Counted from the first letter of the stretch, positions 19,921 to 43,300 are shown. The stretch: DNA of 64,000 bases from an uncultured Bacteroidota bacterium (GCA_903844815.1 CAIMVD010000375.1:8918-72917), one strand, 5' to 3'. The notes: generated from the sequence alone by a model not told the origin. Made by a program: numbers and translations.

Positions 19921-21813
19921 ATGTTAAAGTTAATTAATAGGTTCAGTCTTTCATTCCTGCTTGCAGGTATGATCCTTAGTTCAAACCTGGCTTTCTGCCA
20001 GAATGGATTCAATAATTCAACAAGGTCTCTTTTCATTTTTGACCTGGCAAAGTATATTGATTATGGTCCGGAATTTGCCGATTCCTCCTACTTCAAAATA
20101 GGTTTTATGGTTGGAGAATACGATCTTATTCACGAAATGGACCTTATTGCCAGAACCAGAAATCTTATCCAGAATAAGCCTGTAATGGTTGCCGGATTCA
20201 GCCAGATTGAAAGCATAAAACATGTGCAGGTACTCTATGTCAGCAAAAAAGCCGGATTCAGCCTCGACAGGATAAAGGAAAAGATCTCAGGAAAACATAC
20301 AATGCTTATTACTGAAGGTTATGAGTTCCGTGAATCTATGATAAATTTTATTGTAGTCGACGGCAAACCACGCTTTGACATTAATGAGGATTATATTAAA
20401 AAGGAAGGAATGTCAATTCCTGAAAATCTTCTATATACGGCGGTAAAGACGAAAGAAGACTGGCAGGGGCTTTTTGATAATGCCAGCAAGGAAATTGAAA
20501 TCCAGAAGGAAACGATCAACCAGCAGCTTGAGTCAATTGAAAGACAGAAAAATGAGATCCTTGATCAACGATTTCTTCTGCGGAGCCTTGACCTGGAGAT
20601 TGAATTGAAGGAGAAAACCCTTAATGAAAAGCAACTGGAACTCGAAAGCCAGTTAAGTCAGATAACCCTGCAGCAGACAGATATCGCTTCGCAGAAACAA
20701 CTTATTGATTCCCAGCAAAAAGAAGTTTTGATACAAAAGGACACTCTGGCAAAACAGAGAGGTAAAATTAACATCCAGTTAATCAGGATAAACAGTCAGC
20801 TTTCGGAAATATCAAAACAGGATCAGAAGATAAAGATGCAACTTGAGGCCATCGAAAAACAAAAGCTTATTCTATTGCTTGTCCTGGTGGCACTATTGCT
20901 TGTAAGCGTATTGGGATATTTCATCTACAGGAGCTATATTATTAAAAAAGAAGCAAATATAAAGCTTGAAGAAAAAAACAGGACCATCTCCCTGCAAAAG
21001 GACGAAATTGAAAAACAGAGGGATCTTGCTGCTGCCCAGAGAGACCAGATTACATACCAGAAAAAACATATCGAGGACAGCATAATGTATGCTAAGAGAA
21101 TACAAACCGCTCTAATACCTTCTCTCGAACTATTCAGTGAAAAACTTGAACATTTTGTGCTTTACAAACCATTAGCCATCGTAAGCGGCGACTTCTACTG
21201 GGTCAGTACTGTCGACAGCCTTCAGGTTATAATAGCGGCTGACTGCACAGGCCATGGAGTACCAGGTGCTTTTATGAGCATGCTCGGAGTAACATTGCTG
21301 AACGATATCGTAAACAGTCAGCATATCTTAATGCCCGAAATGATACTTGATGAACTCAGAAGGGGGATAATCAAGGCTTTAAAGCAGCATCCGGAACAGG
21401 ACAGCGTGAAAGACGGGATGGATATAGCCATTTGCGTTATCGACTTTGAGAAAAACATTCTCTGGTTCGCCGGTGCAAATAATCCGCTATACCTTGTGCG
21501 GGAAAGAGAACTCTTTCATTATAAAGAGGATAATATGCCTGTAGCAATACATTACAGGATGGACCCGTTCACACGTCAGCATATTGATCTTAATAAAGGA
21601 GATTCATTTTATATCTTTTCCGACGGGTACTGCGACCAGTTCGGAGGACCGAAACAGAAGAAATTCATGACGGCACGCCTGAAGGAAGCCCTCGTCGCCA
21701 TGGCCGGGGAATCCATGTTGCTGCAGGGAGAAAAACTTAATGACCTTTTCGAACAGTGGAAGGGCGATCAGCCACAGGTTGACGATGTCCTAATGATAGG
21801 CATAAGATATTAG
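19921..21813 (+). CDS. YfiR-like (DUF4154) periplasmic domain - coiled coil - TM - SpoIIE/PP2C-type serine phosphatase
   Basis: The track ORF starts at 19870; the ATG at 19921 gives signal peptide MLKLINRFSLSFLLAGMILSSNLAFCQ. The N-terminal domain resembles YfiR (SLFIFDLAKYIDYGPEF...VLYVSKK...MLITEG...INFIVVDGKPRFDIN). A Q/E/K-rich coiled coil follows, then TM LILLLVLVALLLVSVLGYFIY. The C-terminus has SGDFYWV..AADCTGHGVPGAFMS...DGMDIAICVID...FSDGYCDQFGG...DDVLMIGIRY. Confidence 0.8.
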   Translation: MLKLINRFSLSFLLAGMILSSNLAFCQNGFNNSTRSLFIFDLAKYIDYGPEFADSSYFKIGFMVGEYDLIHEMDLIARTRNLIQNKPVMVAGFSQIESIKHVQVLYVSKKAGFSLDRIKEKISGKHTMLITEGYEFRESMINFIVVDGKPRFDINEDYIKKEGMSIPENLLYTAVKTKEDWQGLFDNASKEIEIQKETINQQLESIERQKNEILDQRFLLRSLDLEIELKEKTLNEKQLELESQLSQITLQQTDIASQKQLIDSQQKEVLIQKDTLAKQRGKINIQLIRINSQLSEISKQDQKIKMQLEAIEKQKLILLLVLVALLLVSVLGYFIYRSYIIKKEANIKLEEKNRTISLQKDEIEKQRDLAAAQRDQITYQKKHIEDSIMYAKRIQTALIPSLELFSEKLEHFVLYKPLAIVSGDFYWVSTVDSLQVIIAADCTGHGVPGAFMSMLGVTLLNDIVNSQHILMPEMILDELRRGIIKALKQHPEQDSVKDGMDIAICVIDFEKNILWFAGANNPLYLVRERELFHYKEDNMPVAIHYRMDPFTRQHIDLNKGDSFYIFSDGYCDQFGGPKQKKFMTARLKEALVAMAGESMLLQGEKLNDLFEQWKGDQPQVDDVLMIGIRY

Positions 21814-22040
21814 CGGCACTCAACCTTGGTAGTCAGCGAGCCGACAGTAATATCAGGAATTGCCTTTTTTGCGATAAGATCCGACCCGCAATACTCGGTT
21901 TCGGATGATGAACTGATTGCCAATCCGTTCTCGTAGGTAACGTTTTTGCATCTTTCACATCCACTCAGCTTTTCACAAGAAGTGACAAAACATACCATAA
22001 ACAGTAAAACTGCCCCGAATAAGAATTTAACTTTCTTCAT
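21810..22040 (-). CDS. Small Cys-rich lipoprotein, unknown function
   Basis: 76 aa. Lipobox FVTSC after MKKVKFLFGAVLLFMVC, with further cysteines in the mature part. Its stop overlaps the stop of the convergent phosphatase gene (ttag at 21810..21813). Confidence 0.5.
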   Translation of the reverse strand: MKKVKFLFGAVLLFMVCFVTSCEKLSGCERCKNVTYENGLAISSSSETEYCGSDLIAKKAIPDITVGSLTTKVECR

Positions 22041-22307
22041 CTATTTTAGTTTTTGTTTATTTTGCCGCGGTTTTATCCGGATGTTACTTATCACAATGAC
22101 CTTTTCCCCTAAGTCTTTCTGATACTTATACAACAAAATTAAATATTTAATTGACATTACAATAGAAACTTATCTTCCGGAGGCTCTGTTGTTACTCAAT
22201 ATTTCTTCCTTTCCAAAATTATCATCGAAAATGCGCCATAAGATTCCACTAATGGTATTAAATTCTACTAACAATTTATAATATACCCTGGTTTTTCAGA
22301 TTTAAAC

Positions 22308-22337
22308 AAAAAAGAAGGTGCCCTGTTAAGGCACCCT
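22308..22337 (-). terminator. Rho-independent terminator downstream of the LruC-domain gene
   Basis: On the minus strand: agggtgcc ttaaca ggcacctt followed by cttttttg. The plus-strand stem arms are 22315..22322 and 22330..22337. Confidence 0.6.
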
Positions 22338-22370
22338 CCAAAATATGTTATTTCCTATCGATTCCAACTA

Positions 22371-24431
22371 TCAGTGGGTATAGATATTCGTGCCGTTTCG
22401 ATATCCTGTAAGCGGTTTAAACCAGTCATAAAATTGAGTTCCGCCAGATTGACCCCAGTTAAAGAATTTAAGGTGGGCCTTTGTAACCATTGTTTTTTCA
22501 ACCGGATGATCGAACGGACCAGCTATGTCAATTGCATAAGGCTGACCGGGAAGAGTAACATAGTATTTGCCTGAAGATGGGATGCTGTTATCCTGAGCGG
22601 AACCAAGCAGTGATTTGTCTGCCAGGTCGGTCGGGAGATTATCAATCAGATGTACTTCGCGTCCCCGTGTCTGGTCAATAAAGATAAAAGGATTGTACGG
22701 AGGTGTGCCTATTGCAGCAAGGGTTACCGGAGAAGTCAGGTTTATTGTTATCTCAATTGTTTTCGGCTGCACCCAGGGCTCGCCAATAGTAGTGTTTACA
22801 CCAATTGCTTTTCCACCGGGATAAGGAAGTTCGTTGAAAGCATCATCGAAAAAGATTATAGTAGCTTTCGACTGGCCTGCTTCAGTCCCATTCGGATTTT
22901 TTGCAATAACCTGTTTCCTGACATCCGTTCCGGTTACACTTGCAATCAGACCGGGTGCAATGGGCAGTTGTATTCCGAAACCGCTGTGATAACTTGCCCC
23001 GATGGCTTTAACTGTAATACTGGCAATTATCCTCACAACCTGATTAGCAGCATTTGTTATCTGGTTGAAGTTATAGTCTATAACCATATCGTTCAAATCA
23101 TAATCGCCTTTGTATGGCCACTGATCCTCAAATGACAATGTTCCCACAGTGCCCCTGGCAGGATAATAATTATTAAAGGCTTTTGCCGCATCGGAAGGGT
23201 AAGCGTCAAAATTATCGGAGACGCCATCCTTATCAGCATCAGCCGCTGTATAAGATGGAACAATAATGTTGGCAGGGTTCACTGAAGAAACCGGGTTGGC
23301 TGAAACATGGAACACTACATCATTGAAATCATGGTCGCTTCCCCTACCCGGAGTTCTGTCATCATCCTCTATTGAAAGAAGGAATTTCGACCTTGCTACG
23401 TCATTAAATAAAACAGTATGTTTTTTAAATTCTGCCCCTGATTCGGAATTTAATTCTTTGTCAGAGTAAAATATTCCCTTTCCGCTGGTGATTGTGGTCC
23501 CGTTGTATCCGTCTTTAATCAGGGCCCATCCGATTATTGTCTTTGGCGCAAATGTACCTATCTTAACACGGCTGCCCGAAGTAAGCCCACCTCCGCTGCC
23601 GGAGAAAGAGGTATTCGGGAAAATAATAAACAGGGTGTCAATATCGGTAGCCGTCTTTGGAACTTTCCCGGCAGTATACTTGTAAAATGCAAGGGTGTTT
23701 TTCGTTTTTGAACCTTCTGAGATAAAGGAGACATAGACATCTGAAGCTTCTTCAATAAGAAGATTGTCCCTATTTGAACTGTTTAAATACTCGGGATGTT
23801 TAACTGATTCATCTGTTCCCTCCGGAAGAGTGGCGTTCAGGTCGTTTAAAAGGTCAGCATCTGCCTTATCATCAGGAGAAGACAGGTAATTGGGCACTCC
23901 CTGTGAATCATAAGTTCCCAGTCCTTCATAAGATGAATTAGTAGTACTGAAAAAAGCCTCCACTGACCTTTTTGCTCCTGTGGCTTGCTTCTTGCCACCA
24001 AGTACAACATTCAGGGAACCTGAAGTAACCTTCACTTTTTGCATATTAACAAATCCGATTGCTTCTGTTCCGACGGCAAGAGAATCTATCCATGCAGGAA
24101 TTTTATATGCTACGGCAAAAACACCGTTATCATCAGTTACACCGCTAAGAATCAGGGAGCCTCCTTTTTCCGGAAGGTTAGAATATACATTTACAAGAAT
24201 ATTTTTTACCGGAGCGCCGCTATTGTCGAGAGTTGCTATCGTAACATCCACATTTTTTGTGGTTATGAATTTGAAATTGGGGCTTATATCCATGTTTTCA
24301 ATCGATGTTTCATCAACCGGGATATCGCCCGGTGATTTCATGCAGGAAGTAACCAATAAGGCAACTCCGATTATAACGGAAAAAATAAGACACACAGGTC
24401 TTACATACTTGGGTTTATTCATTGTATCCAT
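22371..24431 (-). CDS. LruC domain-containing lipoprotein
   Basis: The track ORF runs to 24473. The ATG at 24431 (or 24422) gives MDTMNKPKYVRPVCLIFSVIIGVALLVTSC with a lipobox. The motifs DHDFNDVVFHV and FEDQWPYKGDYDLNDMVIDY are, as I recall them, the LruC/DUF4842 signature. Confidence 0.7.
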   Translation of the reverse strand: MDTMNKPKYVRPVCLIFSVIIGVALLVTSCMKSPGDIPVDETSIENMDISPNFKFITTKNVDVTIATLDNSGAPVKNILVNVYSNLPEKGGSLILSGVTDDNGVFAVAYKIPAWIDSLAVGTEAIGFVNMQKVKVTSGSLNVVLGGKKQATGAKRSVEAFFSTTNSSYEGLGTYDSQGVPNYLSSPDDKADADLLNDLNATLPEGTDESVKHPEYLNSSNRDNLLIEEASDVYVSFISEGSKTKNTLAFYKYTAGKVPKTATDIDTLFIIFPNTSFSGSGGGLTSGSRVKIGTFAPKTIIGWALIKDGYNGTTITSGKGIFYSDKELNSESGAEFKKHTVLFNDVARSKFLLSIEDDDRTPGRGSDHDFNDVVFHVSANPVSSVNPANIIVPSYTAADADKDGVSDNFDAYPSDAAKAFNNYYPARGTVGTLSFEDQWPYKGDYDLNDMVIDYNFNQITNAANQVVRIIASITVKAIGASYHSGFGIQLPIAPGLIASVTGTDVRKQVIAKNPNGTEAGQSKATIIFFDDAFNELPYPGGKAIGVNTTIGEPWVQPKTIEITINLTSPVTLAAIGTPPYNPFIFIDQTRGREVHLIDNLPTDLADKSLLGSAQDNSIPSSGKYYVTLPGQPYAIDIAGPFDHPVEKTMVTKAHLKFFNWGQSGGTQFYDWFKPLTGYRNGTNIYTH

Positions 24432-24807
24432 TTCTTGGTTTTTTATTTGTTTCAAATCCTGCATTAAAACCAATCTTCCCGGAAGAAATGTGGTTTAAAA
24501 TATTCAGGGTTAAAATGTCGTTCATTAATTAGTTTCTTATGCCAGATATATCTACAACCATGCCAAAACCACAACAGGTTCAATTTGAGCTATTTATTGA
24601 ACTATGAAAATAATGAAAGTGTATTATTTTGAGACGGCAGTGTCAATTTTTGACAGGGCAATTCCTTTCCTGACGAGCACACCAACAGATCATCTTTGAA
24701 TTTGTGGATATTTCCAAAGAGTGAATATGAAATAAAATTAAATTGGTCAGCAAAAATGAAGAATTACTATGGGATGGCTTTGTGGGAGGATATTAAACTA
24801 AAGTGAG

Positions 24808-26682
24808 TTAGACTGCAACCGGAAAATTCAGATAAAATGACGAACCCTTTCCTTTAACCGAATTCATTCTGATGCTGCCGCCCATCAATTCAACCAGTCC
24901 TTTTGCAATAGTCAAACCCAATCCGCTTCCTTCAAATCCGCGCGTATTGGCGAGATCCTCCTGCATGAAAAACTTAAATACGTTACTCTGAGCCTCTGCA
25001 TCAATTCCCAAACCAGTATCCTTGACAAATAACTCATATTCTTTGTCAGTGATATTTGCACCAAGGATAATACTCCCTTCCACGGTGAACTTTATGGCAT
25101 TATCGACTAAATGGGATATAGCTTTTTCGAGTAACCCTTCATCGCAAATAAAATAATTATTAATACCGGTGGGAAGCAGGTTTACAAATTCCAGCTTTTT
25201 TCCAATAGATTTTGAAAGAAATTTTTGGTAAATCTTATCCAGGAGTGCAGTCAGATTGACCGGTTTAATTTTCGCCGAAATATTCCCTGAAAACAAAAGG
25301 GACATATCCATATAGTTAGTAATAGTATTTACCAGACGATCAGAGCTTTCATTCATAACTTCAAAACATGCCTCTTTTTCATCCTGTTGAAGGTCTGGTT
25401 TAAGCAGAAATCCACCTAAACTCAGAATTCCGTTTAAGGGTGTTCGCAATTCGTGAGAAATATTATTAAGAAAAGCAGTTTTAAGCCTGTCACTGGCTTC
25501 TGCCCTGACTTTTGCTTCAATCAGATCGGATGTTAATTTCTTTCTTTCTGTAATATCTTCTTTTATTGCAAGGAAGTGGGTCATCCTTCCTTTCTCGTCA
25601 AGGATTGGAGATATTGATGCTGATTCCCAGTACAGTTCCCCCCTTTTATTCCTGTTATGAAACTCACCTTTCCACTCTTTTCCTGAATTTAGCGTATTCC
25701 ACAAATCTTCATACTCTTCATTGGAATTTTCTTCTGAGCTGAATATCTTGGGGTTTCCCCCGATCAATTCTTCAAGTGAGTACCCTGTCAATCTTACAAC
25801 TGACTGATTTGCATAGGTTATTCTACCATTAAGATCTGTAATCAAGACAGAGACAGGGCTTTGCTCAGTAGCTCTGGAGAGTTTGCGGATTTCTTCTTCA
25901 GCCAGCTTCCTTTGCGTAATATCTTTATCTACTCCTCTGTATCCTGTTAATTCTCCGGCACTGTTAATTATCGGGAACCCGTTTGTCAAGAGACATACCC
26001 TATGACCATCTTTGTGAAGATTCCAGTTTTCAAGATCTTTGATTATTCCCCTCTCTCCCGCAATTTTAGAAAAAGATGATCCGACTTTTTCTTTATCCTC
26101 TTCAGGCATAAAATCGAAGGGTGATTTTCCAATTATTTCTTCCTGTGAATACCCCAGAACATTTTCAATTGTACCTGATGTGTAACAGTATTTCCATTCC
26201 TTGTCAATTTCCCAGATCAAGTCGTATGAACTCATTATTATGTCACGAAAACGGGCCTCCGATTCCCGTAATGAAACCTCTGCCCTTATTCTGGTCTGAT
26301 GTTCATGTTCCACCTGAATGGCCCTTTTAACGGCAACCGGCAACTTCGAAAGGTGATCTTTCATAATATAGTCTGAAGCTCCCAGATGCATTAACTCGAC
26401 TGCCAGATTTTCTCCTATGGTTCCTGAAATACATATAAAAGGAACGTCCGGACAAATCTTCTTTGCAAGCACAAGTGATGCTATTCCGCTAAATCCGGGC
26501 AAATTGTAATCTGAAAGAATTATGTCATACTTTACTTTTGAAAGCTTATCGGAATATTCAGCCTCATTAGTAACATGATCAAACTGAAATTTCAAACCTT
26601 CTCCGCTTAGTTGTTCCCTGATTATAATTGAATCTGCCTCAAGATCTTCAAAACACAGGATTTTCAACTCATGATTATTCAT
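24808..26682 (-). CDS. Hybrid sensor kinase: N-terminal receiver - PAS - PAS - HisKA - HATPase_c
   Basis: 624 aa. REC (ILCFEDLEADS...DIILSDYNLPGFSG...ICISGT...DYIMKD), two PAS modules (ITQRKLAEEEI and ITERKKL linkers), H-box NNISHELRTPLNG, G-box GFEGSGLGLTIAKGLVELMGG. Confidence 0.85.
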   Translation of the reverse strand: MNNHELKILCFEDLEADSIIIREQLSGEGLKFQFDHVTNEAEYSDKLSKVKYDIILSDYNLPGFSGIASLVLAKKICPDVPFICISGTIGENLAVELMHLGASDYIMKDHLSKLPVAVKRAIQVEHEHQTRIRAEVSLRESEARFRDIIMSSYDLIWEIDKEWKYCYTSGTIENVLGYSQEEIIGKSPFDFMPEEDKEKVGSSFSKIAGERGIIKDLENWNLHKDGHRVCLLTNGFPIINSAGELTGYRGVDKDITQRKLAEEEIRKLSRATEQSPVSVLITDLNGRITYANQSVVRLTGYSLEELIGGNPKIFSSEENSNEEYEDLWNTLNSGKEWKGEFHNRNKRGELYWESASISPILDEKGRMTHFLAIKEDITERKKLTSDLIEAKVRAEASDRLKTAFLNNISHELRTPLNGILSLGGFLLKPDLQQDEKEACFEVMNESSDRLVNTITNYMDMSLLFSGNISAKIKPVNLTALLDKIYQKFLSKSIGKKLEFVNLLPTGINNYFICDEGLLEKAISHLVDNAIKFTVEGSIILGANITDKEYELFVKDTGLGIDAEAQSNVFKFFMQEDLANTRGFEGSGLGLTIAKGLVELMGGSIRMNSVKGKGSSFYLNFPVAV

Positions 26683-26713
26683 AGAGTACTACTGTTTTTA
26701 ACATTAGGGAATT

Positions 26714-28756
26714 TCATTGGTTGTCCTCCATTTTTTTTGGAATCGAAAAATAGAAAACTGCACCCCGGTCAGGTTCTGCCTCTGCCCATATTCTTCCGCC
26801 ATGACGTTGAATAATTCTCTGCACATTTGCAAGTCCTATTCCGGTTCCTTCAAACTGGGTCGAAGAATGTAAGCGCTGAAATACCCCAAAAAGCTTATCA
26901 GCATATTTCATATCGAATCCAACTCCGTTATCCTTAATAAAAAAAATATATTCTCTTTTTTCTTCCGTATAACCGATCTGAATAACTGCAACTTCCCTGG
27001 TTCTGGAATATTTAACGGCATTATCAAGCAGGTTTACAAAAGCCTGACGGAGAAGATTGTAATCGCCTTCAACAACAGGTAATTTCGAAATTTCCCATTT
27101 TATCTTACGGTCGGCCAAAGAGTCTTTTATATGGGTTAGAGCATCCTCAATTACCTGATCCATTTTTAACCGTGATTTCTTCAGTTCAGAACGACCTGTT
27201 CTTGAGAAACTTAACAGATCGTCAATAAGTGTACCCATTTTCCGGGCTGAACTAACAATAGTGTTCAGGTACTTTCTGGCTTCTTCAGGTACTTGTTCAG
27301 AATACTTACTGGTGAGTATTTCTGCAAACCCATTAATATGCCTTAAGGGAGATCTCAAATCGTGGGATACGGAATAAGAAAAGGCTTCAAGTTCCTTGTT
27401 GGCAGCCTCCAGCTGTGAAGTTCGGTCGATAACCCGTTGTTCAAGTTCTGAGTTCAGGAATCTGATTGCTTCCTCTGCTTCTTTGCGATAAGTAATGTCC
27501 GTATTAAATCCAAACCAGGTGATGCTTCCATCCGGCAGTTTTTCGGGCGATGATCTGGAAAATAACCATTGTATCGGTTTGCCTGGAATCTGCACTCTGA
27601 ATTCACATGTAAAATAAGTGAGATGACTGGCTGAATATTCAATGTCGGCAATGACTCTTTCCGCATCATCAGGATATAATACTCTTGCGATTGGTGCGAA
27701 ATCATTTGCAACATCTTCCGGAGAACATCCGAAAATATTTTTTATGCCCTCAGAAGCCACAGGAACAAAATAGGTCCCGTCGGGTCTCCTTGTAAATTGA
27801 TAAATCAGGTCAGGGACATTTTCAGAGAGTTTTCTGAACTGAAGATCTTTTTCGCGGATTTTTGCCTCTTCAATCTTCTTTTCCGTGATATCCTGAAAAG
27901 CTCCATGTACTTTAAAAATTTTCCCGTTATCATCTCTTACCGCCTCTCCAATTGTTCTGACCCAAACTCTTTTACCGGTTGCTGTAATAATTTCCATTTC
28001 CTCATCATAAGGAATTCCTTTCACTGCGCAGTCGGTAAACACTTTCCTGATTTTTTCATGCCATTCAGGGGCATAAAAACTTATGCTCTCCTCAATAAGA
28101 GGCGAATAGCCGGGAGGCATTTCATGAATTGCTGCAACCTCGTCGGACCAGTAAGATCTGCTCTCGCCCAGAATGACATTCCATCCTCCGAATTTTGCCT
28201 TTTCCCCTGCAATCTTAAGAAGGGAAATTCGCTCCGCCTGCTCATCCCTCTGTAATGTGGTTTCAGTGATAAGATTAACCATATTTAACAAAAAATCCAT
28301 TACCGCCAGAACCTTTTCCTTTGAAACAACCGGGACATTATTAAGTGCTTTCAGGTATTCTTTTTCATTGAATCCATACATCATGGCCTGTTTTCTGAAA
28401 AAGGAGATATCGGGCTTTTCGAAAAAAAACTGCCCTGAAAACAGGTTTGCTATATGCTCCCCGCGGATTACTATAGGGGCGGCTACATCGATCAAACCAT
28501 TTAAACATTCATAGAAATGATATTTTTCTCCTTCGGCCATCTTTCCTGCCAATACAGTATCACTTAAGATACATTTTTTGGAAGTTTCAGGATTCAGACG
28601 GTGAAATTCAGTGCAAATTTGTCTCCATCCCGATTTAGTCAGGATATTCCCATCGAGATCTAAAATAGCAGTTACAAATCCTGTGGAAACATTGAAACCT
28701 TCAAGTAAGGTGCTCACTTTGTCAAAATCGATATAATCTAAAATTCTGGTTTTCAT
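26714..28756 (-). CDS. PocR-domain / PAS / PAS sensor histidine kinase
   Basis: 680 aa. The N-terminus (LLEGFNVSTGFVTAILDLDGNILTKSGWRQICTEFHR...CILSD...YECLNGLIDVAAPI) resembles the PocR ligand-binding domain. Two PAS modules follow, then H-box YSVSHDLRSPLRH and G-box FEGTGIGLANVQRIIQRHGGRIW. Confidence 0.8.
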   Translation of the reverse strand: MKTRILDYIDFDKVSTLLEGFNVSTGFVTAILDLDGNILTKSGWRQICTEFHRLNPETSKKCILSDTVLAGKMAEGEKYHFYECLNGLIDVAAPIVIRGEHIANLFSGQFFFEKPDISFFRKQAMMYGFNEKEYLKALNNVPVVSKEKVLAVMDFLLNMVNLITETTLQRDEQAERISLLKIAGEKAKFGGWNVILGESRSYWSDEVAAIHEMPPGYSPLIEESISFYAPEWHEKIRKVFTDCAVKGIPYDEEMEIITATGKRVWVRTIGEAVRDDNGKIFKVHGAFQDITEKKIEEAKIREKDLQFRKLSENVPDLIYQFTRRPDGTYFVPVASEGIKNIFGCSPEDVANDFAPIARVLYPDDAERVIADIEYSASHLTYFTCEFRVQIPGKPIQWLFSRSSPEKLPDGSITWFGFNTDITYRKEAEEAIRFLNSELEQRVIDRTSQLEAANKELEAFSYSVSHDLRSPLRHINGFAEILTSKYSEQVPEEARKYLNTIVSSARKMGTLIDDLLSFSRTGRSELKKSRLKMDQVIEDALTHIKDSLADRKIKWEISKLPVVEGDYNLLRQAFVNLLDNAVKYSRTREVAVIQIGYTEEKREYIFFIKDNGVGFDMKYADKLFGVFQRLHSSTQFEGTGIGLANVQRIIQRHGGRIWAEAEPDRGAVFYFSIPKKMEDNQ

Positions 28757-29049: not shown

Positions 29050-30288
29050 TTACTCATGCCTTATTGACTCTATGGGTTTCAAATCAGCCGCTCTTTTGGC
29101 GGGCAGATATCCAAATGTGATTCCTACAACAACCGAAAAACCAAATGCGATAAAAATCGAGTAGAGGGCAAGCCAGGTCCTGACGGCTGTTACAAGCCCT
29201 ATTCCCAGTGAAAGGAAGACCCCAAGGAACACTCCTATCAAACCTCCTGTGATACTTATGGTCATAGCCTCAGTGACAAACTGACTCATAATATCGGATT
29301 TTTTCCCTCCTATTGCACGCCTGATACCAATCTCCTGTGTTCTTTCGAGTACCGAGGCAAGCATAATATTCATAATTCCTATCCCTCCGACTATGAGAGA
29401 GATGGCTGCTATTGACGCCAGTAAAAGATTGTAAATACGGCTTTCACGTTTCTCCTGCTCCATCAGCTCATAGGGAATAATTATGCTGAAATCGTCATTG
29501 TTGAAGTGACGGCGCGAGATAATACTCCGGATAACAGCCGCTGACTCTATTAGTCTTTCGGAATTTTCAAGTTTTATGGTCACCTGCTTCAACTCGCTCG
29601 ATAACGGATTCTGTTTCTGGATTCTGTTGCCAAAGGTTGAAATTGGTATATAGACATCATTATTCAGATCCCGCGCAGCCAGTTCACCAACGGTTTCAGT
29701 GAAGAGTGCCTTTGTCTGAAGCACCCCCGAAACCTCAAACCACTGATCGCCGAGCTTAACATTCTTACTTATCGGATCCTCAAAGGTAAAAAGCTCACGT
29801 GCAATATTTGCCCCTAAAACGCAAACCTTCAGATGCCTGTCGTATTGATCCTTATCAATGAAAGATCCCTTATCCATGCGGTAATTAAGGATCTGTGTCA
29901 CTTCGGGAGTAACGCCGATAACAGTTGCTTTCGATGATTTATCCCCGTACATAGCATCAACTTTAGCCTCCGACTGTGGTGCTATTCCCTTCACCCCCGG
30001 AACTATTTCGGTTATTGCCTTAGTATCGCTTAATGTCAATCCCTGTGAGAATTTCGTTCTGACCTCTTCCATATCTGTATCGGTCAGATCCTTGTCGCGT
30101 ACAATAATATTGCTTACACCAAGATCCTGGTATTTCGCCATGGCCTGTTTTTTCGCACCTTCTCCGATAGATATCATCGTTATTACCGACGCCGTGCCGA
30201 AAATTATGCCGAGCATTGTCAGAAACGATCTGAATTTATGGTCGCGAAGCCCATACACCGCAACCCTTATATTCTCTTTTATCTGCAT
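29050..30288 (-). CDS. MacB-type ABC transporter permease (MacB periplasmic core + FtsX domain), no fused ATPase
   Basis: 412 aa. TM1 FLTMLGIIFGTASVITMISIG, a ~250-aa periplasmic domain, then three C-terminal TMs with ERTQEIGIRRAIGGKKSDIMSQFVTEA and YLPAKRAADLKPIESIR, typical of FtsX/MacB permeases. Confidence 0.85.
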   Translation of the reverse strand: MQIKENIRVAVYGLRDHKFRSFLTMLGIIFGTASVITMISIGEGAKKQAMAKYQDLGVSNIIVRDKDLTDTDMEEVRTKFSQGLTLSDTKAITEIVPGVKGIAPQSEAKVDAMYGDKSSKATVIGVTPEVTQILNYRMDKGSFIDKDQYDRHLKVCVLGANIARELFTFEDPISKNVKLGDQWFEVSGVLQTKALFTETVGELAARDLNNDVYIPISTFGNRIQKQNPLSSELKQVTIKLENSERLIESAAVIRSIISRRHFNNDDFSIIIPYELMEQEKRESRIYNLLLASIAAISLIVGGIGIMNIMLASVLERTQEIGIRRAIGGKKSDIMSQFVTEAMTISITGGLIGVFLGVFLSLGIGLVTAVRTWLALYSIFIAFGFSVVVGITFGYLPAKRAADLKPIESIRHE

Positions 30289-30295
30289 TACCTGC

Positions 30296-31522
30296 CTATT
30301 TACTGGTTACTATATTTTCAGGAAGCACAAGTGCCTGGCCTGGCCTCAGCTCACCTGATACAACTGTATAGATATTATTTGAGGGTCCGGTCCTGATTTC
30401 TGTCTTCTTTAGTTTTCCTCTTTTTTTTGTAATAAGGTAATAGTGCCTGTTCTCCTCCAGAATACAATTATTGGGAACGTAAATCTCATCATCTCTTTCA
30501 TAGGTGATGTATTCGCAGCTGACCGTCATCCCTGGCTTAAGCCTAAGGTCCGATTCTGAAATCAGCACCTCAGTCGGGAAGACTTTCTTTTCGTCCTTTT
30601 CTATACAGACTGTGCCTATAGTACTTGTTTTTCCATGGAAGGGAACTAAGGGAAGAGCATCAAGCCTTACAATCACATCCAGTCCCGGCCTGATTTTGCT
30701 TATGTCATTTTCCATTACGAAACCCTTTACCTTCATGGTTCTGATATCGGGAATCTGTGCAACCGGGTTACCAAGATAAACAGCATCACCTACTTTGATC
30801 GTCTGCCCGGTGTTCCAGTTCTGTTCAACCACAAAAATTCCGTCGAGGGGACTCTTAACTACCATTTTGGAAAGTGTTTCCTGTGCAGCTTTAAGCTCGT
30901 TTTCTTTCTGAACTATCTTAATCTGCTGAATCCTAAGGTCAAGACTATCGAGTTTTGGTTTTAGTTCAAGATTTCGCTTAACTTTTTTGAGTTTTATTTC
31001 GGCTTGCCTGTATTCAAATTCTATCACCCTTCTTAAACTGACCGATTCAAAAGCCGATCGTTCGAGCAGTAGCTTTTTTATCTCGAAAGAAGCCTGTTCA
31101 TTTCGCAGCTGTGCCCTGAGATCCTGAAGGTTGTTATTGATCTGTGCCCTGAGTTTATTGGCCGAAGCGATTTCATTTTCAAGCGACTCACTCTTTTCTA
31201 TAATGAATTTCTGAACCGAGGAAGGATCTACTGTAATGACAGCCTCGCCTGTATGAACATTTTTACCATGCTCAGCAAGTCCTATGATCTTGAAATTATA
31301 TCCGTATGTTGAGTTTATTCTGGGCATGCCAAGGTAAGAGGCATTAACAGCCCTGAGCTCACCGGTCTCAATGACCGATTGTCTGAAGGGTCCTTTCATC
31401 ACGGAGTAGCCTGTACTCTGGCTTCTGTCGCATGATACCTGCAAACAAAACAGGACCCCGGTTAACAGAGATGTTATGCACTTCACTTTCAGAACTTTAA
31501 AACATAAGTATTTTATTTTCAT
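30296..31522 (-). CDS. HlyD-family periplasmic adaptor (membrane fusion) lipoprotein, paralog 3
   Basis: 408 aa. Lipobox LQVSC, lipoyl-like hairpin (GEAVITVDPS), a long coiled coil, beta-barrel and membrane-proximal regions (LKPGMTVSCEY). Confidence 0.8.
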   Translation of the reverse strand: MKIKYLCFKVLKVKCITSLLTGVLFCLQVSCDRSQSTGYSVMKGPFRQSVIETGELRAVNASYLGMPRINSTYGYNFKIIGLAEHGKNVHTGEAVITVDPSSVQKFIIEKSESLENEIASANKLRAQINNNLQDLRAQLRNEQASFEIKKLLLERSAFESVSLRRVIEFEYRQAEIKLKKVKRNLELKPKLDSLDLRIQQIKIVQKENELKAAQETLSKMVVKSPLDGIFVVEQNWNTGQTIKVGDAVYLGNPVAQIPDIRTMKVKGFVMENDISKIRPGLDVIVRLDALPLVPFHGKTSTIGTVCIEKDEKKVFPTEVLISESDLRLKPGMTVSCEYITYERDDEIYVPNNCILEENRHYYLITKKRGKLKKTEIRTGPSNNIYTVVSGELRPGQALVLPENIVTSK

Positions 31523-31546
31523 TTTCTGATTTCTGATAATTTTCCT

Positions 31547-32794
31547 CTATGATGGTCCTGAAGCCTTACTGTTTCCGTTCCCTTTTTTCTCCAATAACTC
31601 TTCCTTGTTTAGGAAGGGATTGGATAGGGCAATTGCATCATTCTCTTCAAGACCCTCAGTTATAATGGCAAAATCGGTATTGATGGCTCCGGTTTTCACG
31701 TCACGTCTTTTGAAGCCTGATCCTGACTTTAACCATACATACTCGAGTCCCTGCTCCCTGAAAAGTGATTCAAGAGGGATAAAAAGCACATTGGGAATTT
31801 CATTCACAATTATCTTACAGCTTACCGATAGCCCCGGAAGTAGTTTTTTGCTTTGCCCTGAAATCCTGATCTGTACAGGAAAAATCTTAATCCTTGATTT
31901 GTAGTCCTTATTTTGGGCCAGATTCGCGACCGATTCAACCTTAGCTGTATAGAGTGAATCAGAATAAGCATCGGGGCGGATCTCAACTCTCTGACCGGGG
32001 AGAATTTTTGAGACATCCACTTCGTTTATTTTAACCTCAGCCCTCATCTCCGCCAGATCGGGAAGCTCAATCAGCTTCGATCCGGAATAAGGCTGGTCGC
32101 CTATCGCCCATTTCTGTCCGGTGTTCCAGTTTTCCTCTTTAATGGCGATGCCCCTGGCAGGACTAACAACAAAGAGATTATTCATTGAGCTGTTTGCTTC
32201 GGCAAGGGTAGCTGTCAGCTGCTTCATTGTAAGCGATTTCTGAATGAGGTCTTCCCTGTGGATTATCTTCTTGTTTTCGATTTGCTCCTTTGCCCTGTTC
32301 AGGGCAATTGTAGCAGATTCCAGTTTTAAGGCGATCTCCTGTTTCGTTACTGAAGGTTCATAAATTGATGTTTCGAAATTTATCCTTGAGATCTCCTGCG
32401 AGATACGGGCCAGTTCCAGGTCAGCCTCAAGGTCTTCGATCTCAGATTGCTGCGTCGATTTAAGCTTTTCATATTCCGCTTTCGCTATTTCAAGCTGCTG
32501 TTCAGCCTGAATTATTGATCTTTTAATCTCGGAGGGATCGAAAACCATAACAGTGTCGCCTTTTTCAACCTCCTCCCCGTCATCAACGATTTTGGCTATT
32601 TTCAGAGAACCGTACCTGTATGAGATTACAGGAGCTGAAACTGAAATCGAATTTACAGCTTCAACGGTTCCCTGTTCCGTAAGCTCCTCAAGGAAGGTTC
32701 CTGCTTTAACTGTTGTTACCTGAACGTCAGAGACCTCCTTTCCCCTGCAGGATGACAGGATAATAAGAATCAGGAAAATAATTTTTCTGAACAT
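31547..32794 (-). CDS. HlyD-family periplasmic adaptor lipoprotein, paralog 2
   Basis: 415 aa. Lipobox ILSSC, GDTVMVFDPSE, coiled coil, LLPGLSVSCKI. Same architecture as its neighbours. Confidence 0.8.
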   Translation of the reverse strand: MFRKIIFLILIILSSCRGKEVSDVQVTTVKAGTFLEELTEQGTVEAVNSISVSAPVISYRYGSLKIAKIVDDGEEVEKGDTVMVFDPSEIKRSIIQAEQQLEIAKAEYEKLKSTQQSEIEDLEADLELARISQEISRINFETSIYEPSVTKQEIALKLESATIALNRAKEQIENKKIIHREDLIQKSLTMKQLTATLAEANSSMNNLFVVSPARGIAIKEENWNTGQKWAIGDQPYSGSKLIELPDLAEMRAEVKINEVDVSKILPGQRVEIRPDAYSDSLYTAKVESVANLAQNKDYKSRIKIFPVQIRISGQSKKLLPGLSVSCKIIVNEIPNVLFIPLESLFREQGLEYVWLKSGSGFKRRDVKTGAINTDFAIITEGLEENDAIALSNPFLNKEELLEKKGNGNSKASGPS

Positions 32795-32805
32795 TGGATA
32801 TGATT

Positions 32806-34098
32806 CTATTTAGGATTATGTAACTTAATTGAACCGGATTTAACTTTTACCTGTTTTCCATTGGCAATCAGACTATTTGGAGGTTCCGACAAGGCAATAA
32901 CCTCATCGCCTTTCAATCCGTATGTTATTAAAGTGTATGAACTGCCTGACGACCCTGTCCCGACTTTTACCTGGCTGAAGTTTTCTTTTTCCATCACATA
33001 AACAACTTTGGCGCTGTCCCTTTCAAAAATAGCTTGTGTCGGGATAAAAATTGTATCCCTGGCTTCACTCAGTATGATCTCGCAACCGGCGCTCAGACCT
33101 GGTTTCATTTTTGAATGACAGCTGTCAACATCAATTATTACTTCGTAAAATTTCACTTTGGAATCTGAATATTTCTCGGCAGTATGCCCCATCAGGCTTT
33201 TCCTGTTTACAATGCCGGTAGTGATAAGCCTTTTTGCGGCATCAACAACAATATTAACTTTCTGGCCTTTTTCTATCGTTTTAAAGTCGGCTTCAGCCAC
33301 TTCGGCTGAGACCTCCATCAGGCTGAGGTCGGGAAACTGAAGCACGGGCCGTCCCGGAAACATAACGCTTCCTTCTTTAACCGGCCCGCCAAAGGCTCCC
33401 ATTCCCGAAGAAGTAAAAAAATAGACTTTTGAGGATTCTGCCCGTGTGACTAAACCATCGCGCTGGGCAATGATAGTCAATGAATTAATCTGATCGGCCA
33501 TGGTCTGGGCCTTGGATTTCTCCTGGGCAATTCTGGCCTTAATTTGCCTGATGTCAGTCTCTCCGATCAGTTTAGTTGAAACCAGCTTTTTCTCTGTCTT
33601 CTGTTTTTCTATAAGAGATTTTTTCATCTCTAGTTCAAGCAATCTCCTTTCTACCTCCGAAGCAAATTTCATCTTAAGAGTATCAAGAGAAGAAATTTTC
33701 AACTGTGCTTCACAAGTCGCAAGCTGAGCCTCGAGAAGTGCAATGTTAAGCCGGTTGTCGGCTTCAGTTCTTTTCAGCCCTGCCTCCAGTGTTTCAACGG
33801 AAGTATTAGCTTCCAGATACATAGATTCCACCTCGGGTACAGTCAGGACACATATAGTGTCTCCTTTTTTCACGAAAGCTCCATCTTCAGCGAGTCGTAA
33901 GACAGTCATCTGGTAAAACATCGGGTTGGGAGGTATTACCGGGAAATTAACTACAGCCTGAACTGTACCCTGAACACTTATCTTTTCAGTATAATCTGAT
34001 TTGGTTAGCCTGAAGGTTATTACCCGGTTGTCTTTTTTCCCCGAACAGGAAAAAAGCAATATTGCAACCGGGAAGAAAATATAGAATATAACTCTCAT
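32806..34098 (-). CDS. HlyD-family periplasmic adaptor lipoprotein, paralog 1
   Basis: 430 aa. Lipobox LLFSC, GDTICVLTVPE, coiled coil, MKPGLSAGCEI. Confidence 0.8.
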   Translation of the reverse strand: MRVIFYIFFPVAILLFSCSGKKDNRVITFRLTKSDYTEKISVQGTVQAVVNFPVIPPNPMFYQMTVLRLAEDGAFVKKGDTICVLTVPEVESMYLEANTSVETLEAGLKRTEADNRLNIALLEAQLATCEAQLKISSLDTLKMKFASEVERRLLELEMKKSLIEKQKTEKKLVSTKLIGETDIRQIKARIAQEKSKAQTMADQINSLTIIAQRDGLVTRAESSKVYFFTSSGMGAFGGPVKEGSVMFPGRPVLQFPDLSLMEVSAEVAEADFKTIEKGQKVNIVVDAAKRLITTGIVNRKSLMGHTAEKYSDSKVKFYEVIIDVDSCHSKMKPGLSAGCEIILSEARDTIFIPTQAIFERDSAKVVYVMEKENFSQVKVGTGSSGSSYTLITYGLKGDEVIALSEPPNSLIANGKQVKVKSGSIKLHNPK

Positions 34099-34225
34099 CT
34101 AAAAAGATTCAGAAAGATCCCGTAAGTTTTTCTAAAACGCAGCTGGAAGAAAATTGTTGTTAATAAAATAACAGAAAGTATTGCATCAGTTAAAAAGAAA
34201 AAGCAATTTAATTCTCTGTATCCTC

Positions 34226-35557
34226 TTACATCTTCAAAAACTCCACTCTCCGGTTCAAGGCCTTATTCGAAGGAGAGTCATTGGGGGCCACAGGCTGACC
34301 TTCACCCATTCCGTCGGTTTCAATCCGGGAACCATCAACGTTGAAACTCTTTGCAAGTTCTGCCTTAACAGCAGCAGCACGCCGTTTTGACAGGTCAAGA
34401 TTGGCAGCATCGTTGCCATCCGAATCGGTAAATCCGACTATCTTTACTTTACCTGCTGGGTTTTCGTTTAATACTGCTGCAATATCCTTCAGGGTTCCGT
34501 ATGATTCCGGCTTGACAACATCCTTGTTAACATCGAAATAGATACCATAGGTAACAAGTTTCCCTTCTGTCAGAAGCTTGTTTCGGGTATCGGGCGCTCC
34601 AACTGCAATACGGATATTTGTTACCATTAAGGAGCCGTCCTCGAACCGCAGCCTGTCCATCTTCACTCCCTCAAGGTTAAATGCCTTGGGAAGGTCGAAA
34701 AGTTTGTTCTCATTCTGATAAAGCCTGACTCTGGCTTTCTGAACCCAGATTGCGATATGATATTTCTGATCCACCAACTGTTTATAATTGTCTCCTTCCT
34801 TATAACCTGTCAAACCGAGATTCTCTCCTCCGTCAAGATTTATATATGACTTGTAACTTGGTCTTCCGAAATACTCGACCTCATAATGGAATCCGGCGTC
34901 GCCGGGAACCCCTCCTGCATCATACGATTTCGGATTCTTGCTCTGCAACAATCGTACAGAGTACCCTGTCATGTTGTTTTCTTCACCTTTGATGGGAACG
35001 ATGTCAAATTCAACAGTATAGTTATCGGGAAGCGTAAGCAATCCGTCAGTCCATACCGCATCCCTTCCAATAAAACGCAACCAGTTACCAGGAAATAAGT
35101 TAGTAGTTACAACTTCAGCCGATCCGTTTGTATTCCAGAGAGCAGGAAAATCGCCCACCGCATCCTGGGTAAAATCTTCGTAAAAGATAACCTTCTGACC
35201 GGGAATGAAATCGTATTTCGAATAAACCTGAAGGGAAGGTGCTTCTTGCTCTTTAGCCTTCGTATCTCCGCTCTCCTTGTCTACCTCCTCTTTTTGTTCT
35301 TCAACCTGAACTGCCTGTTCTGCCTGCTCAGTTTTCTGATCTTCCTCAGCACCGGCTTTAGTCTCTTTATTCGCCCCTTCCTTAACGTCTTTTTCAGTTG
35401 CGTCCAAACCTTTATCTAAGCCCTGGTCGATGTTTTGGTTCACTTTGTTGACTGACTTGTTCTTTACCGATCTCAAAATGTTGTTTATCTGAGCATTACT
35501 ATTTCCTGATGATAAAAACATCAACGAAACTACGAGCAGAAAAATAAATTTTTTCAT
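34226..35557 (-). CDS. OmpA-family protein (signal peptide, E/K/Q-rich linker, jelly-roll-like domain, C-terminal OmpA peptidoglycan-binding domain)
   Basis: 443 aa. Signal peptide MKKFIFLLVVSLMFLSSGNSNAQ. C-terminus VKIVGFTDSDGNDAANLDLSKRRAAAVKAEL...NRRVEFLKM is a canonical OmpA_C domain. Confidence 0.85.
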   Translation of the reverse strand: MKKFIFLLVVSLMFLSSGNSNAQINNILRSVKNKSVNKVNQNIDQGLDKGLDATEKDVKEGANKETKAGAEEDQKTEQAEQAVQVEEQKEEVDKESGDTKAKEQEAPSLQVYSKYDFIPGQKVIFYEDFTQDAVGDFPALWNTNGSAEVVTTNLFPGNWLRFIGRDAVWTDGLLTLPDNYTVEFDIVPIKGEENNMTGYSVRLLQSKNPKSYDAGGVPGDAGFHYEVEYFGRPSYKSYINLDGGENLGLTGYKEGDNYKQLVDQKYHIAIWVQKARVRLYQNENKLFDLPKAFNLEGVKMDRLRFEDGSLMVTNIRIAVGAPDTRNKLLTEGKLVTYGIYFDVNKDVVKPESYGTLKDIAAVLNENPAGKVKIVGFTDSDGNDAANLDLSKRRAAAVKAELAKSFNVDGSRIETDGMGEGQPVAPNDSPSNKALNRRVEFLKM

Positions 35558-40316: not shown

Positions 40317-43300
40317 GTGGAAACATTGAGTGAATTCCCAAAAGACGGTATCGGTGCTGAAGACCTTTCACTAACAGCTTCCAAAGCCCTGGATGCTGTC
40401 AGGCGCAAGGAAAACATGCTGAAAGCCATTGCTCTCTCAAGCAGTGAATTAATTTCCAATCCTGATATTTTTGATGCCATTGACAAATCGTTGCCAATCA
40501 TTGGGAAATCAGTCGATGTAGACAGGGTTTACCTTTTCCGGAACAGATTCAGCGAAGATGACAAAGCTGTCTCTTCACAGATTTTGGAATGGAACTCCGG
40601 AAGTTCCTTGCCTCAGATAGATAATCCGGAACTTCAGAATATGCAGTTGGAACACATAGAAGGCTTTCTGGATGAATTACTGCAAAAGCGATCTTTTATT
40701 GCCAAATTATCCGACTTGCCAGCAGGTTCAATTCTGAAAAACATTTTTGAAACAGAAGATGTAAAATCAATTCTTATCATCCCCATTTTCATCAGGGATT
40801 TATTCTGGGGTTACCTTGGATTTGATGATTGCAAATATGAACGGGCATGGGCCGATGATGAAATATCCATACTCAAGAACTTCAGTAACACTATTTCACT
40901 TGCTATTGACCGGGCTGGAATAACTGTTGATCTGGAAAACATGGCGCTTTTCCCCCAGGAGAACCCTGATCCTTTGTTCAGGTTGGATCTCAAGGGTAAC
41001 CTGATTCTCATGAATAAGGCGGCTGAAGCAATAAACATTTTCAGGTATAAAGGAATAGAATATTCATTCGAAGGATTTGCCGGAAAAATAGCATCGACTA
41101 TCTCAGATGATTGCACTCAGAAGGATTTTGAAGTAGAAGCGAATGGGAAATTTTACATGATCAGTTCGTTGCTTTCCCGTAATAAAATCCATATAAACAA
41201 TTATGCAAATAATATAACTGTTTTAAAAAGAACTCAGGCCCAGCTTGAACGGCTTTCGCTTGTTGCCAGCAATAACAGGCAAGGTGTTTATTTTAACGGC
41301 CCCGATTTTAAAATAAATTATGTCAACAGTGCATTGCTTGAATTAACAGGTTATGAAGAGGCGGAGATTCTGGGAAAAACCTCCCGGGAATTATTTTATG
41401 GTCCGTCTACTCATCCTGACAGCATCAAAAAGCTTGAATACAAATCCTTAATATCTGGCCAGACCAACGCAGATCTTATATTATACAGGAAGGACAGAAC
41501 GACCTTCTGGGCAAATGTCAAAGAACAACCCATTCTCAATAAAGACAACGAAACTGAGGAATTTTTTTCCATAATTGAAGATATCAGCGAGAAGAAACTA
41601 TCGGAGGAGAACCTGAAAAACTCCGAGAGCATGCTCGCCTCTCTTGTCGATAATCTGAAAGCAGGCATTCTCCTGGAAGCCGGAAACGGACAGCTTCTGA
41701 TCACTAACAATAGTTTCTGTTCCATGTTCAATATACCCAACAGTCCTTCCGCAATGGTGGGGTCAGATTGCCGGGAGCTTTTAGGAAGAATGGAATACCT
41801 TTTCAGTAATCCATTTGATGCTATAAGAAGGATCGACAAACTCACTTCCGAGAAAAAAATGGTACTCTCCGAAGAGGTCATTCTTGTTAACGGTCAGTAT
41901 TTCGAACGCGATTATATTCCACTTTCTCTTGGTGACACCTTTAAAGGCCATCTGTGGAAATATACCGATATAACTGAACGAATCTACCAGGAAAAGACAT
42001 TAAAGCAACAGGAGGAGAAATACAGGAACATCATTGCCAACATGAAGATGGCTTTGATTGAAACAGATAATGACGACATAATACACTATGTCAATCAGCA
42101 ATTCTGCGAAATGTCAGGTTACTCGGCTGAAGAGATTATAGGTAAAAAATCTGTTGACCTGCTACAGGCCGACGAGTCGAAGCTAATACTGACAGATAAA
42201 AATAAACTAAGGCTGGAAGGGATCTCAGATACCTACCTGATACAATTAAAAACAAAAAGCGGGGAAAAAAGGTGGTGGCTCACAAGCGGCGGGCCGAACT
42301 TCAATGACAAGGGAAAACTCATCGGAACGGTAGGCATTTCGGTCGACATTACTGAACAGAAGATACTGGAAGAGGAACTGCTTATTGCACGGGAAAAAGC
42401 GGAGCAGTCATCAAATGCAAAAGAAGCCTTCCTCTCGAACATGAGCCATGAAATCCGTACCCCCCTGAATGCAATTATTGGCATGATCAGGGAGATATCC
42501 CGGGAATCGCTTTCTGCAAAACAAAATGTATACGTTCAAAATGCGAGTCTGGCAAGCCACCATCTGCTCTCAATTGTAAACAACATTCTTGACATAACGA
42601 AGATTGAATCGGGCCAGATAAACCTCGATATGAGACCTTTCAACCTGAGCAGCCTGATTAAAGATGCTATTTCAATACTATCCGTATCAGCGCAGGAGAA
42701 AATGCTTAAACTTACCGCAGGTATTTCCCACATGCTGGCCCCTGCATATATCGGCGATTCAAACCGGATAAGCCAGATCCTTCTGAACACACTTTCAAAC
42801 GCAATAAAATTTACCGATCAGGGTTCAATAGTCCTTGAATGCATGGTGACAGGAACCGGAAATAATTTTCATGATCTCAGGCTGCAAGTTACCGATACGG
42901 GAATAGGTATTGATGAATCATTTTTAAGAAGTATTTTCGAGAAATTCTCAATGGGTGATTTCACCCCGGCAAGGAAACATGGGGGATCAGGTCTTGGAAT
43001 GTCAATAACCTACCAGCTTGTTCAATTGATGAACGGCACTATTGACGTAAAAAGCACTAAGGGCTCCGGAACGACATTTGTAATTGACCTCAGGCTTGAA
43101 ATAGGCAACGAGAAGGAGATTGACATCACAACCAATACTGAAATCTTCGATGGCCTGAGCAATAAAAAAATATTGCTGGTTGAAGATAATGACCTGAACC
43201 GCCTGGTAGCTACCAATTCGCTAAGCTATCACCATATGAAAGTTACTGAAGCGAAAAACGGAATTGAGGCTATTGAACGGTTAAAGGAAAACAGTTTCGA

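Follow-up and report, generated by a model that had tools for sequence, protein, structure and literature searches.

In Escherichia coli, tolC is linked to neither the macAB operon nor the acrAB operon. The MacAB-TolC pump itself is assembled from dimeric MacB, hexameric MacA, and trimeric TolC (PMC5985334). In TriABC, the paralogous adaptors TriA and TriB fill two positions on a trimeric resistance-nodulation-division (RND) pump in a 3+3 arrangement and have distinct roles (PMC13328181, PMC8277102), and the multi-adaptor pumps covered in reviews up to 2026 are limited to this two-adaptor case. In Anabaena, the hgdBC cluster contains genes for an adaptor and a DevC-type permease but none for an ATPase, which is assumed to be supplied by an unlinked gene (PMC6161253). 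For type I importers, the sharing of "multitask" ATPases is established (PMC7658222). Here, we analyzed a 64-kb stretch of DNA from an uncultured Bacteroidota bacterium (GCA_903844815.1 CAIMVD010000375.1:8918-72917), which we call the window and whose positions serve as coordinates throughout. The whole window was covered, with a focus on a four-gene cassette on its minus strand that encodes three adaptors (A1, A2, and A3) followed by one permease.

Our analysis indicated that A1-A2-A3-permease is probably the conserved core of a MacAB-TolC-type tripartite export pump, a type VII ATP-binding cassette (ABC) exporter, with an unlinked ATPase and channel and with adaptors assembled as a hetero-hexamer. 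The novelty of the locus is its obligate adaptor triplet; the lack of ATPase and TolC genes is of a kind already known. Neither broad reviews up to June 2026 nor full-text literature searches yielded a conserved ABC-type pump with three adaptors, although such absence is no proof. An earlier reading of this locus (hereafter the original prediction) had proposed an undescribed envelope machine, which overstates what is best regarded as a MacAB-TolC-type pump whose set of adaptors is unusual.

The permease (29050–30288; 412 amino acids [aa]) contained the Pfam domains MacB_PCD (PF12704; residues 21–253, E = 9e-36) and FtsX (PF02687; residues 292–402, E = 1e-17), and the Pfam scan found no ABC_tran domain in it. 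Residues 254–647 of the NCBIfam MacB equivalog model, corresponding to all but the nucleotide-binding domain (NBD), aligned to the permease with an E-value of 8e-65. Hydropathy analysis placed transmembrane (TM)-like segments at residues 23–41, 288–306, about 337–369, and 373–391, giving a four-TM topology in which TM1 and TM2 flank a large periplasmic domain. This combination of MacB_PCD, FtsX, four TM segments, and a large periplasmic domain is the permease feature of the MacB family.

The adaptors A3 (30296–31522; 408 aa) and A2 (31547–32794; 415 aa) matched HlyD_D23 and HlyD_3, and A1 (32806–34098; 430 aa) matched HlyD_2 in addition to these two; all of these HlyD-type Pfam matches exceeded the curated cut-offs. 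The three proteins are paralogous, with pairwise identities of 24–30% and E-values of 1e-30 to 7e-55. Each carries a lipobox that closes a signal peptide (LFSC with Cys18 in A1, LSSC with Cys17 in A2, and QVSC with Cys31 in A3), and the lipobox Cys is conserved among the orthologs of each paralog. A1 is the most divergent paralog and has an 11-residue insertion following the C-terminal lipoyl half, A2 is the best conserved (81% identity to its ortholog in locus L001), and A3 bears a long N-terminal helix. A1–A3 are MacA-like periplasmic adaptor lipoproteins, and the permease is a MacB/FtsX-type (type VII ABC) membrane subunit. All four open reading frames (ORFs) of the cassette are intact in the window, and the spacing between the permease, A3, A2, A1, and an OmpA-like gene farther upstream is 7, 24, 11, and 127 nt, respectively. 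The composition, coordinates, tight packing, and lipoboxes given in the original prediction were thus confirmed by the ORFs and Pfam matches.

To place the cassette among its relatives, we scanned for the permease with one genome per species and obtained 80 loci, all from Bacteroidales-level metagenome-assembled genomes (MAGs). The taxa included Prolixibacteraceae, Paludibacter, Mariniphaga, and uncultured Rikenellaceae or Porphyromonadaceae bins, and all identified carriers were uncultured. Permease identity to these relatives ranged from 57% to 88% in the scan, and was 65–88% when 79 of the loci were compared. ORFs were called in each locus and compared with the window proteins and with one another, and the order of A1–A3 was checked by tblastn. 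Clustering revealed only four recurring families: the permease (79), the adaptors (73), the channel (38), and the ATPase (32). The order A1-A2-A3-permease was found in 65 of the 65 loci whose sequence extends 4 kb or more upstream of the permease and is therefore not a product of chance. Intergenic gaps within the cassette had medians of 8–29 nt across loci, with frequent overlaps. A2 was seemingly lost in five loci, which proved to be an artefact of the ORF caller: tblastn showed A2 to be intact, or frameshifted in nanopore MAGs.

The families other than the adaptors and permease were a separate ATPase and an outer-membrane channel. The ATPase of related cassettes (PF00005; approximately 227–239 aa) had the MacB NBD as its top NCBIfam match (E = 4e-81), followed by DarD, LolD, FtsE, and DevA, and the channel is a TolC-family OEP protein (PF02321; 494–501 aa) present in 38 loci. 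Both genes lie directly downstream of the permease in basal and many other lineages, and further metagenomic contigs included six-gene forms with the ATPase and channel and five-gene forms with the channel but without the ATPase. The original prediction had treated the absence of ATPase and TolC as a property of the machine and had itself named their routine presence beside the same triplet elsewhere as contrary evidence; more than 30 related loci show exactly this layout followed by an ATPase and a TolC-family gene.

We then examined the order of gene losses using a neighbor-joining permease tree and a bootstrapped tree of concatenated A1, A2, A3, and permease sequences. The full six-gene form occurred in basal lineages and several others. 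Loss of the ATPase with retention of the channel was found in at least three supported places: L071, which is sister to the window's clade (bootstrap 90); L079; and the L027/L029/L039 group (bootstrap 96), whose nesting within ATPase-bearing lineages had support of 92 and 100. L052 represented a fourth case in the permease-only tree. Overall, cassettes keeping the channel without the ATPase were those of L027, L029, L033, L039, L052, L071, L074, L078, L079, and L084–L086, and the permease–channel gap after ATPase loss was clean (12–153 nt). The window's clade, comprising about 30 species (bootstrap 99), lacks both genes. The ATPase gene has thus left the operon independently at least three times and the channel gene once, in the window's clade, and the missing ATPase and TolC genes at the window locus are a secondary loss of linkage. 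This repeated loss suggests that MacB-type permeases share ATPases.

The ancestral operon comprised six genes: those for the three adaptors and the permease, one for a MacB/LolD-type ATPase as a separate protein, and one for a TolC-family outer-membrane channel. In the window's lineage the ATPase gene left first and the channel gene later, with the adaptors and permease being kept. Searching the entire 64-kb window by tblastn with a cassette-type ATPase as the query gave no match at E < 1e-3, extending to the whole window the original statement that no ATPase is adjacent. Domain scans of the other large window ORFs likewise found no ABC ATPase, revealing instead histidine kinases, an SprB/type IX secretion system (T9SS) adhesin, and a Wzx/Wzy exopolysaccharide locus. 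An NBD of the MacB/LolD/FtsE class is consequently a feature of the orthologous cassettes and is missing from the window locus. No full-length OEP gene was found in the window either, where the sole OEP-domain gene (45849–46604) encodes a 251-aa single-repeat protein.

Separate searches concerned the possible relocation of the two genes. The ATPase query returned 7950 matches, of which the best 120 had 71–100% identity. The three contexts sampled, together with all of the L-numbered loci carrying an ATPase, were complete cassettes, and no moved copy was seen. When the query was the channel from the closest relative that has one, every context sampled was A1-A2-A3-permease-channel, two further matches lay on contigs equal in length to those of A1 matches, and an unlinked channel gene was not encountered. 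L053 and L044 seemed to lack an ATPase only because of an ORF-calling artefact. The finding that the sampled high-identity homologs of the ATPase and channel all lie inside cassettes mildly favours replacement by paralogs over simple relocation.

At 54 ATPase-less loci, which together covered 851 kb, no MacB-type ATPase was found within 10 kb. Taken with its absence from the window, with the lack of a relocated ATPase ortholog among the sampled contexts, and with the recurrence of ATPase loss at least three times, this would also fit a permease and adaptors that act without ATP hydrolysis in the window's lineage, perhaps as a signalling module or a passive scaffold in the periplasm; the missing ATPase would then mark a genuine change of function. 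We consider this very improbable, as the conservation of the permease points in the opposite direction. Residues 310–335, the cytoplasmic TM2–TM3 loop, occupy the position of the MacB coupling helix. In the clade without both genes, the mean column entropy was 0.27 bits for this loop and 0.22 bits for the C-terminus (residues 397–412) versus 0.56 bits for the periplasmic domain, and the consensus of both segments was nearly the same as that in ATPase-bearing clades. The permease dN/dS (the ratio of nonsynonymous to synonymous substitution rates) also stays at 0.03–0.07. Moreover, the reviews of MacB and tripartite pumps that we consulted describe no ATP-independent MacB/FtsX-type permease (PMC5985334, PMC8277102), and the accepted view of HgdBC is that its ATPase is unlinked (PMC6161253). 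Because the coupling loop and C-terminus stay conserved in the ATPase-less clade, we infer continued use of an ATPase whose gene lies elsewhere. The original prediction had left both options open, namely an ATPase encoded elsewhere or one not used; the former is the best reading, and the latter is unlikely given these conserved elements.

Selection was estimated by the Nei–Gojobori method for close pairs from clades with and without the ATPase. The dN/dS values were 0.08–0.19 for A1, 0.03–0.19 for A2, 0.05–0.18 for A3, 0.01–0.07 for the permease, 0–0.05 for the ATPase, and 0.01–0.075 for the channel, with no visible relaxation in ATPase-less clades; all cassette genes are under purifying selection. 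These values bear on the idea that the locus is the decaying remnant of a pump without its ATPase and channel, as two of the six ancestral genes are gone from it. We give this idea next to no credence: the ORFs are all intact, about 30 species of the clade still carry the four-gene form, dN/dS (0.03–0.19) is not above that of complete cassettes, and the length of the adaptor hairpin is unchanged. The original prediction had named pseudogene-like rates in two of the three adaptors as contrary evidence; the same range of values and the joint retention of the adaptors in all 65 loci show that they are not pseudogenes.

Next, we focused on the structures of the adaptors. The best sequence relatives of A2 and A3 in the PDB were MacA proteins (4dk0, 5nik, and 3fpp for A2). 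AlphaFold2 models of A1 (mean predicted local distance difference test [pLDDT] score 81.5) and A3 (mean pLDDT 85.7), in both of which residue numbers equal the protein numbering minus one, showed the full four-domain architecture of MacA-type adaptors, with membrane-proximal (MP), beta-barrel, lipoyl, and alpha-hairpin domains. The A3 model was built on an alignment of distant paralogs, and a profile search with mixed A1, A2, and A3 sequences gave only A1 orthologs. Foldseek searches returned MacA of MacAB-TolC as the top matches of A1 (9qgy_G and 5nik_D, E of about 3e-20) and of A3 (9qgy_G, E = 9e-21, TM-score 0.64); the top matches of both had E-values from 1e-19 to 9e-21 over approximately 375–390 aligned columns.

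The helices of the hairpin comprised 55 and 59 residues in the A1 model and 58 and 58 residues in the A3 model, corresponding to a predicted hairpin length of approximately 80–85 Å when helix residues are multiplied by 1.5 Å. An alignment of 173 adaptor sequences showed no indel in the hairpin region between A1, A2, and A3, and the hairpin was 115 residues long in 169 of the 169 sequences covering it, in every clade. The hairpin tips differed among the paralogs, with the family-wide conserved sequences IS.LDS.QMKFA in A1, ISKINFEQAVYESE in A2, and DLKKLELERSKFDSE in A3; a K-x3-L-x6-S arrangement at the tip, an RLS-type motif as judged by eye, occurred in A3 alone. The orthologs of A1 and of A3 were each monophyletic, and the triplication is therefore older than all sampled lineages.

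As a separate observation on the hairpin, its center (residues 136–160 in A1 and A2 and 149–173 in A3) was the most conserved stretch of 25 residues in channel-keeping clades. In the window's channel-less clade, conservation of this center was no higher than that of the flanking helices. This shift may represent adaptation to a different channel, in a comparison uncorrected for phylogeny.

Three co-inherited adaptors with equal hairpins and distinct tips, combined with three non-equivalent positions, are best read as a 2:2:2 hetero-hexamer, and by analogy with TriAB the adaptor funnel is most likely such a hetero-hexamer seated on the permease dimer. In the complex we propose, an inner-membrane permease dimer would bind two copies of an ATPase encoded elsewhere, and a hexameric adaptor funnel would connect it to an unlinked TolC-family trimer, each paralog filling one of the three non-equivalent positions offered by the dimeric permease. 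ATP-driven closing of the periplasmic domains of the permease would then expel a periplasmic or outer-leaflet substrate via the funnel and channel, as has been proposed for MacB. The hetero-oligomeric ring put forward in the original prediction fits the equal hairpins and individual tips; its suggested anchoring through the OmpA-like protein found no support, as described below.

The same adaptors might instead form three alternative homo-hexamers on one permease dimer, yielding three versions of the pump that differ in substrate or outer-membrane-channel specificity. This arrangement would agree with the fact that characterized MacA-type adaptors are all homo-hexamers (PMC5985334) and with the complete four-domain adaptor fold of each paralog, as modelled for A1 and A3, and a distinct conserved tip per paralog could mean different channel partners. 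We nevertheless regard it as unlikely. All three adaptors are kept in 65 of 65 loci across family-level divergence and across losses of the ATPase and channel, and the fixed gene order with short or overlapping gaps is as expected of equimolar subunits. Furthermore, ancestral cassettes have one dedicated channel gene per three adaptors, and TriABC, the sole multi-adaptor pump studied, is hetero-oligomeric (PMC13328181).

Several points weigh against the proposed pump with its hetero-hexameric funnel and unlinked partners. Equal hairpin length would be needed just as much for separate homo-hexamers docking to one channel, and a 2:2:2 ring mismatches the three-fold symmetry of the channel. Neither an ATPase nor a full-length TolC-family gene was located for the window organism, of which 64 kb were covered, and the sampled contexts contained no relocated ortholog of the cassette channel, as was the case for the ATPase; the ATPase and channel acting in trans would then be paralogs. 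No substrate gene was linked to the cassette among the 80 loci. Finally, the trees are neighbor-joining trees of MAG-derived sequences, some of which are frameshifted.

A stronger form of the proposal holds that the A1:A2:A3 ring is obligate, with a 2:2:2 composition and one position for each paralog, and that the pump routinely uses a borrowed ATPase (here also a borrowed channel), the ATPase serving type VII ABC exporters as a module that is shared and can be exchanged; we advance this form tentatively, with slightly less than even confidence. If true, the triplet would label the three non-equivalent positions and open the role of each to genetic and structural study, much as TriA and TriB have done in the RND case. 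The matter bears on a structural question for ABC-type tripartite pumps, namely how six identical adaptors are accommodated between the two-fold MacB dimer and the three-fold channel. Repeated loss of the ATPase with intact coupling elements suggests ATPase sharing by MacB-type exporters, which matters for the annotation of "orphan" FtsX-type permeases in Bacteroidota.

The gene upstream of A1 (34226–35557, minus strand) encodes a 443-aa OmpA_C-domain protein with its OmpA domain at residues 340–436. Its signal peptide is followed by a low-complexity segment rich in Lys and Glu at approximately residues 30–105 and by a central region of approximately 230 residues with no Pfam match, with the OmpA_C domain last. 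The original prediction had considered the protein a possible peptidoglycan anchor of the adaptor ring, and one could suppose that the two constitute a new peptidoglycan-anchored envelope machine, since the OmpA_C gene lies only 127 nt upstream on the same strand and no terminator-like site or TAnnTTTG motif was found in that gap. Synteny told otherwise: a homolog occurred within 10 kb of the cassette in 2 of the 80 loci and never in the same position, the genes upstream of A1 vary even among the closest relatives, and a MacAB-TolC-type operon accounts fully for the cassette. We thus consider such a machine extremely improbable.

Farther upstream, a strong terminator-like hairpin (36056–36020, minus strand; 16 pairs followed by a T run) was located after the gene for a protein with a T9SS tail and upstream of the OmpA-like gene, and TAGTTTTG, a Bacteroidetes-type motif, was found at 35699–35692 (minus strand), approximately 135 nt upstream of the OmpA-like start. 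The OmpA-like gene may be co-transcribed with the cassette in the window genome, yet it is no conserved partner. The sigma-70 promoter scan of the window was uninformative (19 sites versus 15.5 expected), and TAnnTTTG showed no window-wide enrichment.

Among the other window genes, that at 45849–46604 (plus strand) encodes the 251-aa protein with a single OEP repeat (PF02321, E = 8e-20), equivalent to half a TolC protomer. Its neighbors encode a response-regulator-fused sugar transferase (44621–45820) and a Wzc-like chain-length/kinase protein (46607–49114) within the Wzx/Wzy exopolysaccharide locus. None of the window ORFs scanned was a Wza/Poly_export gene, and the OEP-repeat protein may stand in for an outer-membrane polysaccharide exporter. 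A 4842-aa ORF at 920–15448 (minus strand) combines SprB repeats with PKD-like domains and a CHU_C signal for type IX secretion; it encodes a giant surface adhesin of the gliding type that has no relation to the pump. Around the cassette, the regions 17828–28756 and 40317–44565 contain an unusually dense two-component set consisting of four histidine kinases, a stand-alone receiver, and an SpoIIE/YfiR-like protein. Response regulators or kinases also adjoin the cassette in L083, L089, L037, L041, L044, and L053. Such neighbors hint at two-component control of the cassette, as reported for some MacAB systems.

Finally, we compared the cassette with described systems. It resembles MacAB-TolC of E. 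coli (PDB ID: 5NIK) in its permease with MacB_PCD, FtsX, and four TM segments, in its MacA-like four-domain, long-hairpin adaptors, and in its ancestral complement of a TolC-family channel and an ATPase that matches the MacB NBD best; "bellows" export in the periplasm is expected in both. The cassette differs in having three paralogous adaptors, kept together in all 65 loci, where MacB-family pumps have a single homo-hexameric adaptor species. Its adaptors are lipoproteins, whereas E. coli MacA is TM-anchored, and its NBD is a separate polypeptide, with the ATPase and channel genes being unlinked in the window's lineage. We also list as a difference the hairpin helices of about 55–58 residues in the cassette.

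TriABC-OpmH of Pseudomonas aeruginosa shares with the cassette the combination of one transporter gene and several paralogous adaptor genes in the same operon, with all of the adaptors retained. That pump requires both TriA and TriB, which sit at non-equivalent positions of one hexamer (3+3). However, TriC is a trimeric RND proton antiporter working with two adaptors, whereas the cassette has a MacB_PCD/FtsX transporter, a dimeric ABC-type permease, and three adaptors, implying a 2+2+2 arrangement. Co-assembly has been shown for TriAB and is proposed by analogy for the cassette adaptors.

The HgdBC/DevBCA-HgdD systems of Anabaena sp. PCC 7120 likewise combine a MacA-like adaptor, a MacB/DevC-type permease, and a separate ATPase, and the hgdBC cluster lacks ATPase and channel genes and is thought to borrow both (PMC6161253). 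These systems have a single adaptor and are tied to glycolipid export, and the cassette adaptors, with 36.4, 41.6, and 22.4 bits, fell far below the DevB-family cut-off (TIGR02971; 129 bits). The permease scored 46.9 bits against LolC/LolE (TIGR02212; cut-off 362 bits), which acts without an adaptor or channel, and it is encoded alongside three adaptors. Judged by these NCBIfam cut-offs, the cassette is neither of the DevB family nor a Lol system.

YknWXYZ of Bacillus subtilis and Spr0693-0695 of S. pneumoniae are also split MacB-type pumps with a separate ATPase, an FtsX-type permease, and a MacA-like adaptor, and the cassette adaptors match YknX-derived Pfam models in precomputed annotations; these two systems are Gram-positive, with one adaptor and no outer-membrane channel. 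The multitask ATPases MsmX and MsiK offer a parallel in that ABC membrane parts without their own ATPase are run by a shared, unlinked one (PMC7658222), although they serve importers of a different ABC class and no shared ATPase is known for MacB-type exporters. As judged from these sequence features, the cassette belongs functionally with the MacB-family tripartite pumps.

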